Source: Nitrosopumilaceae archaeon
GTDB lineage: Archaea > Thermoproteota > Nitrososphaeria > Nitrososphaerales > Nitrosopumilaceae
Assembly (NCBI GenBank): GCA_965214835.1
Contig: CBDCCK010000002.1
Coordinates: 2,080,001-2,144,000, forward strand
Reading direction: 5' to 3'
DNA: 64,000 bases
Positions 21,483 to 60,016 of this stretch are shown in pieces. The notes under the pieces are model-generated. The model saw only the letters and a list, made by a program, of their open reading frames with translations. It searched no databases and was not told the DNA's origin. A program made the translations under genes and the position numbers. Positions within the stretch are counted from its first letter, which is position 1, and every line of letters starts with the position of its first letter.

Positions 21483-22850
21483 CAGTAGTTGAAAATGTAC
21501 CCCATAAATCCGTCTAGCCGGGATCATGCCGCCGTCGCCCCACCCCGATCCTGTCGGCATCCGGCGCACGGAGGCAGCACGAATACAGGACCACGGCATA
21601 CATCAGAGTCAGCAGCGCCATGACGCGGGTCTTTGGGTCTCCCGAGTCCCTCATTGTCAGCCATATGTTGCATACTGCAAGCGACATGTAAAACAAAAGC
21701 ACACGCAGGACAGGATTCCTGCTGACGGTCCGCGGCCTGACGCTCTTGGCACAGCGGTATCCGGTCTCTATGCCCCACCTGTTCCGGTACTCTCTTGTCA
21801 CATGGCAGAACAGCTGCCGATAGCTGCAGCAGCGCACCGTGGTCGCAAACACGTGGTATCTGTCAAAGACGTTCTTTGCCTTGGACCTTGGGATCTTCTT
21901 GATGACCAGCGTGAACGTGAACTCTTTGCCGTCTGACGACCTCATGGTATACCTTGATACTGCCTTTCTCTTGCCGCGGGCGCGCTGCACTATGGCCCTC
22001 TTTATCCCCGGTGTCTTGACTGCGGGCATGATGAATGCAAACCCGGGTTCGGATATGGCATCCATTACATCGACCGAAAAGAACCCCCTGTCAAGCAGGA
22101 TGACGCTGCGCCTTGACCCAAGCCTGGGCGTAATGCCCAGATCGGCGCATTTTTTGAGCATATTACGCACCAGATCGGCCTGTTTGTCGCCCTCGGTCAC
22201 CATGCGGCAGGCCGTATGCACGTCGGCGCCGGCCTTGGATGTCAGCTTGCATGTCATGTACTGCTCATAGTTGATGGTGCCCCTGTCGCGCTTTGACTTT
22301 ACCAGGTGCTTTATGTCGGTTTTCTTGTCGTATCTGGGCAGCTTGGTCTCGTCTATGGCAAGGACAGGCGCCTTGTGGCTCCTTTGGAGGGAGCAAAGCT
22401 GCCTGCCCACCGCCTCGGCGGCCGTGTAATGCAGCATTGCATCGCACCTTTTCTCCATCGTGGACAGTCTTGCGTGCCCCAGCTTTGCAAGAAGCCAGGC
22501 CGAGCTGGGCACCGCGGCCCCGGCGCCTTCTGATGCAAGAAGTGCAAGCTTTTGGGCGGTATAGTGCGCACATGCGGAACGCTCCGACATGGATGCAATC
22601 AGGCGGGAGGCGTCTTCCAGGCCCCACATGGCGTTGTGTCTTGAGGAGAACTTGATTTTCAGCATGCCTACTGCGGTAACCAAGAATTTAAATCCGGCCT
22701 CACCGTACCTTGTGTGGTGTTTCTGTTGGGTTTGGTTCATTATCAAGGTAGACAGGAACACCGCTGTTTATAGCTCGATTGGTGAAAAAATCATGTCAAC
22801 TTGTTCAAAACATTCAGACACTTAAAAAGGGGGTACATTTTCAACTACTG
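21483..22850 (-). mobile_element. ISH3-family IS (transposase 21514-22761)
   Basis: TIR CAGTAGTTGAAAATGTACCCC; 5-bp TSD TACAT; AIDET, LLDRGF, YRNRWGIETGYR. Confidence 0.95.
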
Positions 22851-45715: not shown

Positions 45716-46076
45716 GCTTGTTGCATAACCCTGCCTAAAATTTTGAGCTTGGCCAAAAATCACCAAGATGATCAACGGATCCTGACCGAGAGGGTAAAGG
45801 ATCATGGGAGCGGCATACATGGTACTTGGCATATACGGACAATGCGTTATACGTAGAGGGTGCAGACCTGGTCGTCGAGATCGTAATATCGGTCATAGAG
45901 CGCATGTTTGGCTAGGACGTGATGGGCCACAAGTGGTCCAACATGGTGCATGAGATAAAGTTGGGGGTGTGGATGTACAACAAGTGGGTTGTGGAGGCGG
46001 TTGGCCGTGTGGGAACCGCGCACCGGTTATGATCCGGGCGGATCGACTGGGCTCTAGTCGGGGTTGTGCAGCAGAC
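45716..46076 (+). mobile_element. IS903-like (IS5-family) internally deleted element
   Basis: TIR GCTTGTTGCATAACC/GGTTGTGCAGCAGAC flanked by TA; left part matches 50255-50410. Confidence 0.8.
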
Positions 46077-48156: not shown

Positions 48157-48567
48157 CTATCCGTACTTTGCCTTTTGCTCGTCCCAGCACCTTCTGCAGA
48201 GCTGGCCTTCGATCTTCCACTTTGGCTTGGGGTTGTACCGTATCAGCCCCATCTTGCCGCTGCATATTGTGCAAAAGTTCCTTTTCTCGTTGAATCCTGA
48301 CTCTTTTTTATCAAAACACTCCTTGCAGAGTAGCCCATCCATGTCCCACTGCCACCTTGGCTCCCACATGTCTGAGATCTTCTTGGTGGTGCCGCAGACA
48401 ATACAGGGCTGCCTGACCTTGGCCTCGTAGAACTCGTTTGACTTGTCCATGTGGCAGTCCCCGCAGAGCCTTCCATTGATGTTCCACTCCCGCTTGGGCT
48501 TGTGCTTGTGAGTGAGCTCCTTGCTGCATACTGCGCAATATTCCACCTTTTTGCCAAACAGGCCCAT
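48157..48567 (-). CDS. tri-repeat CxxC zinc-binding protein
   Basis: Three CxxC...P..W...G.LCxxC units. Confidence 0.85.
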   Translation of the reverse strand: MGLFGKKVEYCAVCSKELTHKHKPKREWNINGRLCGDCHMDKSNEFYEAKVRQPCIVCGTTKKISDMWEPRWQWDMDGLLCKECFDKKESGFNEKRNFCTICSGKMGLIRYNPKPKWKIEGQLCRRCWDEQKAKYG

Positions 48568-48629
48568 GATATCACTGGCTGGTATTTGATTAAAAATGAT
48601 TCGAGGCAAAAACGGGCGGGATTTGGCGA

Positions 48630-48755
48630 CTAGGATTCGTCAAGAATCTTCTCGATTGCCTGGCTTGCGTTTAGCATGCCGTGCTCCCTTGCAAATTCCT
48701 CGATGATCCTGTACTGCTCGGTTGTAAAGCAGATCGGCATTGAGCGCTTGTCCAT
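48630..48755 (-). CDS. small ribbon-helix-helix-like protein
   Basis: 41 aa: MDKRSMPICFTTEQY..IEEFA...ASQAIE. Confidence 0.65.
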   Translation of the reverse strand: MDKRSMPICFTTEQYRIIEEFAREHGMLNASQAIEKILDES

Positions 48756-48844
48756 GATGGTAGCAGGGGCTGTTATTTAATATGCCTTCCGATGCTCGTA
48801 GCCTGTTGAACACATGATAAAAACGCCCCCGCCGTAGCCAGGGT

Positions 48845-48955
48845 GATGGATCAACCCCTCGTTATGCATGTGCTTCGCGCACTACCTGTTGAATGGGGAT
48901 ATCCGAGCTGCTGTGTTCCTGTGCTACGCGCACTGATGGATGAATGCAGCTTCTG
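48845..48955 (+). ncRNA. predicted bridge RNA (target and donor loops)
   Basis: Two stem/internal-loop modules whose loop strands match the target and circle junction; conserved in three copies. Confidence 0.8.
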
Positions 48956-48995
48956 ATCTGTCAAACCATATCCGAAAGGAGGTGAAAGAAAAGGA

Positions 48996-50073
48996 TTGAG
49001 AAGCATAGGAATAGACATTGGAAAGAGAAAATGCGCAGTGTGCGTCATCGACGCCAAGGGACACGTGCTAGAGGAGGGCTCGTATAACAACACGTACAAG
49101 GAGGCATCAAAGCTTGCTGCACGACTGAAAAAAGAGTACAAAAAGTGCCAGGCCGCGTGCGAGTCAACGGGCAACATGTGGCTAAAGACGTTCAGGGCGT
49201 TTGAGGATCAGCATATCCCCATACTGCTTGCAAACACCCTCAAGATGAAGATAGTATCAGAGACCAGCGCAAAGACCGACCCGATAGACGCAAGGAAGAT
49301 AGCCGACACGCTCAGGGCCGGAATGATACCACGATGCTACGTGGCATCAGCAGAGCTGAGGGATGTCAGGGAGCTGATGAGGTACAGGATACGGATGGTA
49401 CAGGAGAGGACCGCAGTCATAAACGGGCTGCACAGCTTGGCTTGACAAGTACGACATAGCCATAGATGCATCCACGATGTACTCCAAGAAGGCCATACGG
49501 AAGATCTCCGATACCAGGCTGAACATGCCAAACGATGACAGGATACTGGCAAGCTGCACTAGGAGGATTGCATCAGTTACAGAGGAGATAGACCAAGCAG
49601 GGGAGGACATAGGAAGACAGGCAGGATCGAACGAGGATGCCAAGCTGCTGTTGAGCATGACGGGAATAGACACCTTTGCAGCAATGCTGCTGATAGCAGA
49701 GATCGGCGACATAACCAGATTTCCATCGCCGAACCAGCTTGTGTCCTGGGCCGGCATGTGTCCCCGGGTGTACCAGTCGGGGGATCGCGAGTACTACGGC
49801 CACATGAAAAAGGATGCAAACCGCAGGATCAACTGGCTGATGATCCAGATAGTCAACGTCGCCGTACAGCACGACGACAGGATGAAAGAGTTCTACGAGA
49901 GGGTCCGCAAAAGGAACGGCAACAACCACGTCATAGCGATAACGCATGTTGCAAACAAGATGCTCAGGATAATCTGGCACATGCTGACGACAAAGACTGC
50001 GTATTCATCGCGCAATGCTGTCCTGTACGACAAGAAGATCAAGAGGGTGACAGAACTGGCGGGAACGGCATAG
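48996..50073 (+). pseudogene. IS110 recombinase, one frameshift near 49440
   Basis: GIDIGK, ESTG, KTDPIDA; C-terminal G.CP...QSG. Confidence 0.92.
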
Positions 50074-50254
50074 GATTACCACCTTCCTCCCCCACCCACC
50101 CACCCAATGATCCGCCCGCACCCTGGCAGGTGCGACAGGACTGGCTCGTGCGTATTGCTAGCGTTAGCTATAAAGCACGGCCCGGCCGACTAGGCACGGA
50201 TCAGAAGACGAAAGGAACGTCGCCATGTTACTGGCGGGCGTTTTACCATGGATG

Positions 50255-50640
50255 CATAACTCTGCCTAAAATTTGAAACTTGACCAAAAATCACCCAAAT
50301 TATCAACGGATCCTGACCGAAAAAGTAATGGAATATGAGGATGCCACGTATGGTACTTGACACACACGGACAATGCCAAGTACGGAGGGGGGTAGGCCTA
50401 GTAGTCAAGTACGATCCAGGCTGGGAGAATGATCTCAAGAATGCCAACTGCCACAAGGAGGGTGCCCCGTTCCTGTACGCAGATGGCATGATAATGGTCG
50501 CGGCGGCCCTCAGAACCGCATTCATGATGCCGTACAGGCAGCTGTCAGGCATGATCAGGGAAATGCTAAGGGGCATGGACTCGTCGTGCTATGCCACGAT
50601 ATTTGGGAGGATGCAAAAGCTTGACGTCGACATTGCATAG
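50255..50640 (+). mobile_element. IS903-like remnant whose left TIR is interrupted by IS110 copy 1
   Basis: VRRG...W...KEG.PF.Y...PYRQ..G; GCCTGT-TG-CATAAC reconstitutes the TIR. Confidence 0.8.
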
Positions 50641-50719
50641 TCAACACATAAAAAAAACGGATTGTTTTGACAACTATTTTTGATCCAAAGATCTAAGACT
50701 AGGGGAGCCATACATATGT

Positions 50720-55987: not shown

Positions 55988-57439
55988 CATCTATGTTAAA
56001 ACGCCCGGGCCCTTTAGCGGTGGCAAGCTGTGTCTCTCTGATCCACGCCTAGTTTGATATGGGCCGCCTTATGGCTTACGCTGGGTACAGGGGTCTGTTC
56101 CCCGTGTGGGAATGGTGCGCATTACTTTGCTGTCTTCTTCCCAGCCTCGGATGGCGGCTCGGATGCTGCTGCAGTAGTAACAGCGGCAGTAGCAGCAGCC
56201 TCTGCCCTGTCCATCTTGAGGCCGTACGTCCTGGGATCGTGTCCGGAGTATGGCGTCTTTGTCACGAGCATGGACCAGATGATCCTGATCATCTTGGTTG
56301 CCACGTACGTCCTGGCCACCATGGACCTTGCGCTGCTCCTCTTCTTGGATCCTGCATGGATCCTTCCCATCCTCTCGTCGTATATGGCAGCCGTCCGCGC
56401 AGCCTGAAGCATCGCCCGGTTGCACCTGTGGTTGGATGTCTTTCTCATCTTGCCGCAGTACTCCCTGTCGCCGGACTGGTGGACGGTCGGACACATGCCG
56501 AACCACGCAACAAGCTTGCCCGGGGTCTTGAATCTGCCAGTATCTCCGATCTCGGAGACCAGCAGCATGGCCGCGAGTCGATCCCCGGAATGCTCATCGG
56601 GATCCTCGCATCCTCGCTGGCGCCGGCCTGTGCGGCTATCTTCGTCTCGATGTCTGCAATCTCCTCCGTGGGCTGCCTGACCCTTCTGGTATGCGCGCCA
56701 AGAACCGCCCCGTCGTTGGGATCATCAGGTGCCATGTCTGTCAGCTGCCTGAGTCCCTTGTCGGAGTACGCGTGTGACGAGTCGATCCTCTCGTAATACC
56801 TGTCCGGGAGGCCGTGGATCCGGTTGATCACGGCCGTCCTAGCCTGCACGGGGCCGATCCTGCAGCGCATCAGCTCCATGACGCTCCAGAGTCCGGGCGG
56901 TGCCACGTAGCACTTGGGAACCATTCCGGCCCTCAGGGCGTTTGTGAGCCTTCTTGCGTCGATTGGATCAGTCTTTACGTCAATGTCCGAGATTATCCGC
57001 ATCCTGTAGGTGTTGGCAAGCTTGACGGGTATTCCTGCGGACTAGAATGCCTCGTAGGTCTTGAGCCACATGTTGCCTGCGGACTCGCAGACGGCCTGGC
57101 AGTTCCTTCCGTAATTGAGCCTTGTCTTCCTGGCAAACAGGCCCGCCCTCCTTGGAGGTGTTCTCGTATGCCGTCTCTTCTTGGATCCTCTTTTTGTCGT
57201 CCATAATGCACGCTATGCGTTTTCTCTTTCCAATGTCTATTCCTATGCTGCATTACATCTTTTCTCGTCTTCCTTTTTTTGTGGTTCAGAGGCTGCACAC
57301 GTCCATCAGCACGCCGTGGTGCACGAACACTGCAGCTCGGAATTACCGCATTCAGAAGTCAGCGCGCGGGGTGCATGGGAAGACAGCGGTTGATCCACGT
57401 CACCACTGCTACGGGCCCGGGCGTTTTAACCCGTGTTCA
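55988..57439 (-). mobile_element. IS110-family element, copy 2 (multiply frameshifted recombinase ~56122-57253)
   Basis: GIDIGK, ES.G, KTDPIDA, QSG; subterminal IR TTAAAACGCCCGGGCCC; TG core. Confidence 0.9.
57288..57397 (-). ncRNA. predicted bridge RNA of IS110 copy 2
   Basis: Same two-module layout; target-loop strands GTCTTCCCA and ACTTCTG match its own flanks. Confidence 0.7.
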
Positions 57440-59570: not shown

Positions 59571-60016
59571 GTCTGTTGAGTACATGATAAAAACACCCCA
59601 CTGTAGTCAGGGTGCTGGATCAGCCCCCACCATGCACGTGCTTCGCGCACTATCTGTTGAATGGGGCAGTCAGAGCTGCTGTGTTACTGTGCTTTACGTA
59701 CTGGTAGATGACTGCAGCTTTTGGTACATCAAGACTAGGCGGAAAGAAACCGTCTGCGATGACTCGCCTCCTGTCCCACCACCCATCCAATGATCTGGGA
59801 GGATATGACATGACCGCACTGGGACAAGGCAGGTGCTATTGCATCGTGCAGCCAGCTAGCTGTAAAGTGGGTCACGATCAAGTAGGCATGGATCAGAGGA
59901 AACTAGGAGCATCGTCGTTTCTGCGATGGGTGTTTTTAACATAGATGCATAACCATGATTTTAGGCACAAAAGATCAGTCACCTTTGCGTGTTCAGGCAC
60001 GGCTATGCAACAAGCG
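59571..60016. mobile_element. IS903-like MITE hosting the IS110 mini-element
   Basis: GTCTGT-TG-CATAACC ... GGCTATGCAACAAGC. Confidence 0.7.
59577..59947 (+). mobile_element. non-autonomous IS110 derivative (left and right ends only), copy 3
   Basis: Colinear with both non-coding ends of copy 1, no recombinase ORF; TG cores and subterminal IRs. Confidence 0.88.

Follow-up and report, generated by a model that had tools for sequence, protein, structure and literature searches.

The stretch of DNA analysed here (the window) comprises 64,000 nucleotides (nt), C2:2080001-2144000, of the 3.22 Mb genome of a Nitrosopumilaceae archaeon. It carries, within another mobile element, an insertion sequence (IS) of the IS110 family whose upstream non-coding end appears to encode a bridge RNA that would lead the recombinase of the element to its target. 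The archaeal nature of the host is supported by a neighbouring S10 gene, which matches the model uS10_euk_arch with 129.7 bits (cut-off 96.25).

Anatomy of the element and its recombinase gene

The features of the element are collected in Table 1. On direct reading of the sequence, it begins with AACACA (48809-48814) and ends with CATGGA (50247-50252). A TG dinucleotide, the core, is found on each side (48807-48808 and 50253-50254), preceded on the left by the flank GCCTGT (48801-48806) and followed on the right by CATAAC (50255-50260). As the core stands on both sides of the element and empty sites contain a single TG, the insertion did not duplicate its target. The element has inserted into a terminal repeat belonging to an IS5-like element, 7 base pairs (bp) from the outer end of that repeat, and the open reading frame (ORF) 50335-50640, which adjoins the right end, matches PF13737 (DDE_Tnp_1_5). 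The non-coding ends measure 187 nt upstream and 181 nt downstream (50074-50254) of the gene. They contain a subterminal inverted repeat, which is separated from the left tip by 11 nt and from the right tip by 8 nt and the core.

Table 1. Features of the element and of its insertion site (positions in the window).
Feature	Positions	Strand	Description
IS110-family (IS1111-like) element	48809-50254	+	1,446 bp including the right-hand TG core; 8 copies with the same ends
Left target half and core, CCTGT-TG	48802-48808	+	Outer 7 bp of the IS5-like terminal inverted repeat
Right TG core and right target half, CATAAC	50253-50260	+	Runs on into the IS5-like element
Subterminal inverted repeat, left arm AAAACGCCC	48820-48828	.	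9/9 complementary to the right arm
Subterminal inverted repeat, right arm GGGCGTTTT	50236-50244	.	Pairs with 48820-48828
Predicted bridge RNA core, about 118 nt	48845-48962	+	Closing stem P1 (48845-48853 with 48954-48962) around both modules
Target-binding module (predicted)	48855-48898	+	Stem CCCC/GGGG; inner hairpin GTGC-TTCGC-GCAC, 48870-48882
Donor-binding module (predicted)	48905-48952	+	Stem GAGCTGC/GCAGCTT; inner hairpin GTGC-TACGC-GCAC, 48921-48933
Recombinase, N-terminal RuvC-like DEDD domain	48996-49445	+	PF01548, E 1.1e-29, profile positions 1-149 of 155; stop after a 1-nt insertion
Recombinase, C-terminal part, +1 frame	49477-50073	+	PF02371, E 5.7e-25; own ATG at 49477
Right-end segment ACGGATCAGAAG	50196-50207	.	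Complementary to 48950-48961 (3′ arm of P1 plus CTTC)

The recombinase gene is divided into two ORFs by an extra G within 49436-49446, where the window copy reads AGCTTGGCTTGAC and an intact paralogue reads AGCCTGCTTGAC. The motif G--P----SG, the definition and role of which are given in PMC11187229, appears as AGMCPRVYQSG in the window copy and as AGLCPRVYQSG in the intact paralogue. The latter (P0001) matches the NCBIfam model NF033542, 'IS110 family RNA-guided transposase', with 234.2 bits against a cut-off of 140, and each half of the window copy falls below that cut-off. The same extra G splits the gene in 10 of the 11 copies of groups A and B (defined below), including copies only 89-92% identical to the window copy; the lone intact one is C2:513238-514647 (minus strand). 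The frameshifted form thus spans lineages that have diverged by 8-12% and have changed their target, which suggests trans-mobilisation, recoding or a two-piece enzyme. The window copy itself probably depends on a recombinase made elsewhere. In two other genomes, G010 and G004, intact ORFs of 363-377 amino acids were found in three of the four loci of each.

The initial annotation of the window had described an archaeal IS110-family element with subterminal inverted repeats and a frameshift near 49440. Its coordinates, cores, flanks, tips and guide words all proved exact on direct reading, its repeats pair at nine of nine positions, the two Pfam domains and the S10 gene bear out the family and the host, and the frameshift is real.

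Concerning other recombinase genes of the family, NF033542 has 46 matches genome-wide. Intact IS110-family genes that are not preceded by the leader studied here occur at C2:311834-312844, C2:1472970-1473935, C2:1547910-1548875 and elsewhere; several IS110 lineages coexist in the genome.

Guide words, copies and target sites

Upstream of the gene, four guide words are found, each within an internal loop of a predicted module closed by a hairpin of the form GTGC-N5-GCAC. In the target-binding module, the 5′ guide GTTATGCA (48861-48868) is the reverse complement of TG plus CATAAC (8/8), i.e., of the core and the right flank, and the 3′ guide CCTGTTG (48885-48891) equals CCTGT plus TG (7/7), i.e., the left flank and the core. 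In the donor-binding module, the 5′ guide TGTGTTC (48912-48918) is the reverse complement of G plus AACACA (7/7), the left tip, and the 3′ guide ATGGATG (48936-48942) equals ATGGA plus TG (7/7), the right tip. As to the order of the guides, the one on the 5′ side, GTTATGCA, is complementary to the + strand TGCATAAC, and the one on the 3′ side, CCTGTTG, is identical to the + strand and would pair with the bottom strand. When the region 48809-48995 was subjected to 200,000 mononucleotide shuffles, none held three or four of the four guide words and 55 held two. The form of both modules and the agreement of all four words with the target and the predicted circle junction had been put forward in the initial annotation, and both stand as described there.

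The genome contains further copies, which fall into groups, each with target loops of its own. Group A comprises eight copies, 98-100% identical and with identical ends, at different sites of the genome; their guides are GTTATGCA and CCTGTTG, the left flank is CCTGTTG in six of them and one base off in the other two, and the right flank is CATAAC in all eight. The three copies of group B (88-92% identity) have the guides CATTTTCA and GTAGTTG; all have GTAGTTG as left flank, and one has AAAATG as right flank, those of the other two being unmatched. Group C comprises four copies (about 65% identity) with the guides GTCTTCCCA and ACTTCTG, the 5′ guide being also written (G)TCTTCCCA. Their left flank is ACTTCTG in three cases and ACTTTTG in one, and the three right ends available show GGAAGAC (9/9 with the core), GGAAAAC and one unmatched sequence. 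One group C member is located in the window itself (55988-57437, minus strand); it has several frameshifts and an 18-bp perfect subterminal repeat, and its guides ACTTCTG and GTCTTCCCA face the flanks ACTTTTG and GGAAAAC.

Besides the full-length copies, there are several short derivatives of about 369 bp, which have retained 165 nt on the left and 205 nt on the right but not the gene. They retain the whole bridge-RNA region with target loops of their own, and are present in the genome of the window and in another genome, G002. One of them is in the window (59579-59947, + strand) at TCTGTTG|CATAACC, its 3′ guide being TCTGTTG (7/7) and its 5′ guide showing three mismatches. Another, with the guide TTTGTTG, sits at TTTGTTG. 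Steps of a single base in the guide are thus followed by the flank as well. Short left-end matches were considered as solo ends, a reading that was rejected since they correspond to these derivatives formed by a left end and a right end. Left-end copies at C2:10110 and C2:2928844 are truncated at different points, and the sequence after them looks like an uninterrupted target site belonging to a fourth class (GGGGTTGCCGCCTAATTC), which is possibly the tip of another element inserted there.

Empty versions of the targets abound in the same genome. For class A, CCTGTTGCATAAC occurs 4 times against about 0.1 expected, and TGTTGCATAAC, with the first two bases free, 31 times against about 1.5. For class B there are 23 exact copies and for class C 61, with 0.1 or less expected for such 13-mers. 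In class A, the target is the terminal-repeat tip of IS5-like elements and of the miniature elements derived from them, and the ends TAG-NNTGTTG|CATAAC are found uninterrupted many times. Class B corresponds to the tip of an ISH3-like element of 1.36 kb, and class C to the last 20 nt of another repeat. In all three classes, the insertion occurs 7-12 bp from the outer end of the repeat. In the window, an ISH3-like element at 21485-22848 (NF033541, E 6e-31, below the cut-off) carries an unoccupied CAGTAGT-TG-AAAATG in both terminal repeats. Unoccupied class A-like sites are also seen at repeat ends at 45717 (+ strand, CTTGTTGCATAAC) and 60014 (minus strand, CTTGTTGCATAGC), the second one beside the 369-bp derivative.

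Covariation, RNA structure and proposed mechanism

A covariance model of the leader located the family in 10 of 61 genomes, namely that of the window, 8 of 36 others of its taxonomic family and 1 of 24 others of its order, and 48 homologous ends were aligned. The 3′ guide was compared with the left flank at the five non-core positions, leaving out a row whose guide had a gap. In the 37 unique pairs, 126 of 185 positions match, while shuffled pairings gave a mean of 69.3 and a maximum of 96, and none of 20,000 reached the observed value. With one row per distinct 3′ guide (27 guides), the count is 92 of 135 against 46.6 shuffled, again with none of 20,000 as high. Nine of these 27 guides score 2/5 or less, some of them being decayed copies or rows in which the model misplaced the boundary (L040, L045 and L052). 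In L045 and L052, both from G010, TTCATTTG stands in place of the initial 8 nt of the left end; this sequence is their own 3′ target guide plus one further base. Since the two have the same longer flank, they probably arose through the copying of a larger repeat that included them.

For the 5′ guide, the right end could be placed in 26 of the 48 rows, which yield 18 unique pairs. Comparison with the six bases right of the core gave 64 matches out of 108 against 35.3 shuffled; including two derivative ends seen later, both misses, the figures are 65 of 120 against 38.6, with 0/20,000 shuffles as high. The guide-flank covariation test proposed in the initial annotation is thus strongly positive for both target guides, and the matching pairs represent numerous different guide classes, spread over several genera.

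The donor guides follow the ends of the element in a similar manner. The 3′ guide takes the forms ATGGATG, ATAGATG and ATAGGTG, which equal the right end in group A, in group C (2/3), in G010 (3/3), in G004 (4/4) and in G056; the exceptions are one group C copy (5/7) and three short derivatives (6/7). Where the left end AACACA has become AAGACA, in G019, or AAAGCA, in G056, the donor 5′ guide shows the corresponding change.

Concerning the structure of the RNA, RNAalifold run on a MAFFT alignment of 14 ends recovers helices P1-P5, including the closing stem and both modules. In the 48-row alignment, 92.3% of the cells are paired, as compared with 25-51% when the partners are slid, and 22 of the 32 stem pairs display compensatory changes on both sides, which none of 500 shuffles attains. 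G-U pairs are common (37 of 41 rows at one P4 pair). On the opposite strand they would be A-C; therefore, the folded molecule has the + sense, like the recombinase gene. The weakest helix is a 5′ hairpin over the left subterminal repeat (75% paired), and this stretch may act as DNA. An A/T-rich word at positions 8-15 of the element is placed like an archaeal TATA box and, judging by its location, could start transcription near the closing stem. A kink-turn was considered and dropped, because the words UGAUGG and CUGA lie inside P1, an ordinary Watson-Crick helix that covaries.

The two ends of the element are related by two complementarities. The subterminal repeat changes in sequence and keeps its complementarity, being an 18-bp perfect repeat in group C and an 11-bp perfect one, TAACCACCCCG, in G004. 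In L039 and L048, from G022, the inverted repeat measures 23-28 bp and comes almost to the tips, so that it is nearly terminal rather than subterminal; despite this, the 3′ guide of L039, TGGAGTG, equals its left flank. The second complementarity is that of the right-end segment 50196-50207 with 48950-48961, where 11 of 12 nt pair. The position of this segment, 48-60 nt away from the right end, is the same in groups A, B, C and D, in G010 and in G004, and in group C both sides are changed (TCTCTGATCCAC/GTGGATCAGAGA) with the complementarity preserved.

It seems reasonable to interpret these results in terms of an IS110-family insertion sequence with IS1111-type features that is moved by RNA-guided recombination by means of an upstream bridge (seek) RNA, to which we assign a probability of about 0.87. 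The anatomy of the element, the covariation of the guides with the flanks and with the element ends, the conserved RNA structure and the recombinase domains support it directly. According to the proposed mechanism, the upstream non-coding end would encode an RNA of about 118 nt, the closing stem of which would hold two similar internal-loop modules. The target module matches both strands of CCTGT-TG-CATAAC, and the donor module would read the junction CATGGA-TG-AACACA formed when the element ends join in a circle. The DEDD/Ser recombinase and the RNA would then align target and donor and swap strands at the TG core, leaving TG on both sides and no duplication. The targets are the outermost 7-12 bp of terminal repeats that belong to other mobile elements. 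By analogy with IS621 and ISEc11, the RNA would be made and bound by the recombinase, the circle would form and catalysis would proceed as in those elements.

Several observations weigh against this interpretation. The bridge RNA is predicted from the genome sequence, no RNA run being listed for it. Folding the leader 48809-48995 as a single sequence, another check put forward in the initial annotation, gave no signal (z -0.72, with 43 of 200 shuffles at least as stable), so that the support for the structure comes from covariation and not from folding energy. Even so, the 48-row alignment had been fitted to the RNA model, which favours the structure counts, and the shuffle tests overstate significance because related copies are not independent. 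Left flanks are poorly matched in several rows, e.g., L020, L023, L029, L040 and L041, and right flanks are unmatched in B_1517777, C_2665853, G010_L035, G056_L042, G002_L056 and a pair of miniature inverted-repeat transposable elements. An Rfam search gave four matches, all with E of 4.2 or higher and far below the gathering scores. The frameshift shared by the window copy and nine others precludes a full-length recombinase by ordinary decoding. Finally, contigs of four DNA runs over 48500-50600 contained neither the circle junction nor the empty site; these contigs show loose ends at the element borders, and their summed depth is greater across the element, which is what a repeat should give. 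Among the Rfam matches, that to a C/D-box snoRNA at 48949-49004 was discarded as noise, its E and score being far off the threshold.

The same data bear on the reading that the guide-like words act as DNA, either as internal copies bound by the recombinase or as scars of recombination, with no RNA guide involved. It could be argued that the RNA has been deduced from sequence, that the left subterminal repeat overlaps the weakest helix and that the second left-right inverted repeat could be a protein site. On the other hand, the stems flanking the guides keep their pairing through two-sided changes, the G-U pairs point to a folded single strand of + sense, and the family has been found experimentally to be RNA-guided in the systems described in PMC11208160 and PMC11187229. 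A purely DNA-level role of the words is thus considered very improbable, and RNA-guided recombination is retained as the interpretation of the locus.

Relation to known systems

In the account of the IS1111 group given by Siddiquee et al. 2024 (PMC11187229), the subterminal repeats measure 7-17 bp, the RNA is usually located downstream of the gene and, in all the seekRNAs tested, the order from 5′ to 3′ is first the segment complementary to the top strand and then that for the bottom strand. The studied family has subterminal repeats of 9-18 bp and the same guide order, the top-strand guide being 5′ of the bottom-strand guide. It also shares with ISEc11, ISKpn4, ISPa11 and ISPst6, as described in that source, a DEDD recombinase with the G--P----SG motif, repeats of at least 7 bp and site-specific insertion without duplication. 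It differs in that the RNA (48845-48962) is upstream of the gene start at 48996, while that of the IS1111 elements described in PMC11187229 is downstream, and in having plain internal loops, of the IS621 kind, for both target and donor. Membership in the IS110 family at large is indicated by both Pfam domains, the motif, the NF033542 match of the intact paralogue, the core on both sides and the covarying loops.

Concerning IS621 (Durrant et al. 2024, PMC11208160; PDB 8wt6), the likeness resides, as far as that description goes, in an RNA placed upstream, in the left end, with target and donor internal loops that address both strands and pair the 2-nt core. This location of the RNA and its two internal-loop modules could suggest a canonical IS621-like member of the IS110 group. 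Nevertheless, the order of the guide strands is reversed in each loop of the studied element, its repeats measure 9-18 bp as compared with the 2-3 bp reported for IS621 in PMC11208160, and its closing stem encloses both modules. At the protein level, P0001 aligned with the IS621 and ISCro4 structures with E about 1e-8, the IS621 alignment being confined to the C-terminal 130 residues (E 1e-8). An IS621-like classification is, of all the readings weighed here, the one that we find hardest to credit, and the IS1111-type assignment is preferred to it. The core of IS621 is CT, versus TG in the studied element.

The closest named relative is ISHvo10, from plasmid pHV4 of Haloferax volcanii (NC_013966.1), with 93% of the protein aligned at 30.1% identity (E 2e-37). 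Among plasmid-borne relatives of the intact recombinase, the best 25 all come from haloarchaea, with 30-35% identity, and named bacterial elements gave E of 6e-14 or weaker, these E-values coming from different databases and being a rough guide. The four ISHvo10/ISHvo9 copies on pHV4 were read by eye. Such reading indicated a subterminal repeat of 14 bp, a closing stem on the upstream side (GCGTGAATCA/TGATTCACGC) and a module GACC-[CTGTATTC]-GTGC..GCAC-[GTGCTGACT]-GGTC, in which the reverse complement of the right flank appears as the 5′ word (8/8, one copy) and the left flank itself as the 3′ word (9/9). The word CATAGGTG equals the right end plus TG, a donor 5′ guide not being identified by eye. 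Long non-coding regions on both sides of the ISHvo10 gene, as published, fit the studied element (187 and 181 nt). In sequence, ISHvo10 is too distant for the RNA model of the studied family. No empty ISHvo10 site was found on pHV4 at one mismatch or less, so that the boundaries are inferred ones, and the minimum-energy fold keeps the closing stem and a long hairpin but not the target module seen by eye.

The passages of PMC11187229 dealing with exceptions report an upstream non-coding region in ISMtsp17 and non-coding regions on both sides in ISHvo10 and ISAcp5, and place ISHvo10 among diverged IS in a passage on IS1111 relatives. ISMtsp17, an IS1111 relative according to that source, is likened to the studied element by the location of its long upstream region alone. 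Since the guide polarity, the subterminal repeats and upstream exceptions had thus been published, and since ISHvo10 appears by eye to have the same layout, the element is regarded as an IS1111-type member with an upstream RNA rather than as a separate subtype. On its traits, it would be classified in an archaeal clade having ISHvo10 as named representative. If the element passes through a circle, as proposed above, a shift of the junction across the RNA gene would turn the downstream form into the upstream form.

This has to be weighed against the view of the initial annotation, which postulated a new archaeal subtype whose guides read the strand opposite to the element. The reversed polarity can be read directly and is real; as a new property it does not hold, being the IS1111 order already published in PMC11187229. 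Likewise, the combination of an upstream RNA, long subterminal repeats and reversed polarity is real, while each of its parts had a published precedent among the IS1111 elements and exceptions of that source. A subtype with a mechanism of its own, apart from the IS110 and IS1111 groups, would also find some backing in the exclusively haloarchaeal set of best plasmid-borne relatives and in the second conserved left-right pairing, which is absent from the published descriptions compared, as far as these extend. Moreover, the RNA model R1, run with filters off on a Haloarcula relative and on a Klebsiella IS110 element, matched neither (best E 0.5). Against it, moving the junction around the circle suffices to explain the upstream RNA with no new chemistry, and neither the catalytic motifs nor the two Pfam domains are out of the ordinary. 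Besides, a 2026 preprint sorts 32,190 bridge RNAs from bacterial and archaeal intergenic regions under 86 structural models, many of them unlike IS621. An independent archaeal subtype is therefore quite improbable, and the element is treated in what follows as an IS1111-type member. Regarding the Klebsiella/Escherichia coli element used in the comparison, it lies inside an IS3 transposase gene and fits ISEc21-like elements of the IS110 group, no name being attached to it.

A bolder proposal is that the element belongs to an archaeal clade, with relatives probably in haloarchaea, having a circularly permuted IS1111-type system that unites three peculiarities as yet undescribed. These would be guide-carrying hitch-hikers of about 369 bp that retarget a recombinase acting in trans, a functional gene split by a frameshift (through recoding or a two-piece enzyme) and a right-end segment that replaces the 5′ arm of P1 as a switch between integrated and circular transcripts. 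That all three hold together seems unlikely, though less so than the separate subtype. The short derivatives resemble MITEPpu9 of ISPpu9, which, in the account of PMC12288879, is a short non-autonomous derivative of an IS110-family element, retaining the ends together with a small RNA gene and presumably served by the recombinase in trans; they differ in that MITEPpu9 carries Ssr9, not a bridge RNA, while in the derivatives of about 369 bp the bridge-RNA region is complete.

As to the choice of target, the insertion into the tips of the terminal repeats of other mobile elements makes the element a parasite of parasites. A precedent is found in IS4321 and IS5075, IS1111-type elements that, according to what Partridge and Hall reportedly described in 2003, insert in the terminal inverted repeats of other transposons. 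The subterminal repeats and the kind of target are thus common to both cases. The difference is that IS4321 and IS5075 are bacterial and use repeats of the Tn21 family, whereas the studied element is archaeal and uses IS5-like, ISH3-like and other tips, with at least three classes in one genome. It may be that the element limits or remodels the very large load of insertion sequences in its genome.

No paper was found that describes an archaeal or Nitrosopumilus bridge RNA, although one may be listed in the supplementary material of Durrant 2024, of Siddiquee 2024 or of the 2026 preprint; the characterised systems in the literature covered (PMC11187229 and PMC11208160, in the parts drawn upon) are all bacterial. 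The element is a clear natural example of a mechanism known from bacteria, which it leaves unchanged, and the novelty is modest. Its main interest is that of a natural retargeting series, in which a single scaffold serves three or more target classes within one genome and, over ten genomes, there are 27 distinct 3′ guides that track their flanks. Such a series lets the pairing rules be read without experiments, including an apparent tolerance of G-U/G-T wobble at the core. The small recombinases (359-377 amino acids) and the compact RNA (about 118 nt) are candidates for tests of RNA-guided recombination in archaea. Archaeal IS110 recombinases also bear on the evolutionary link to Nop5 and C/D-box guide RNAs proposed for them in a preprint (bioRxiv 10.1101/2024.06.21.599552, as far as covered).

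A last observation concerns the surroundings of the element. Within the IS5-like transposase gene, directly 3′ of CATAGTC and from window position 50641 onward, there is a repeat family that starts with AACACATAAAAAAAACGG. The junction CATAGTC|AAC.CATAAAAA is seen again at several sites of the genome, and the ORF of this repeat gave no Pfam match. The first letters of the repeat at 50641 resemble the left end of the studied IS110 family.

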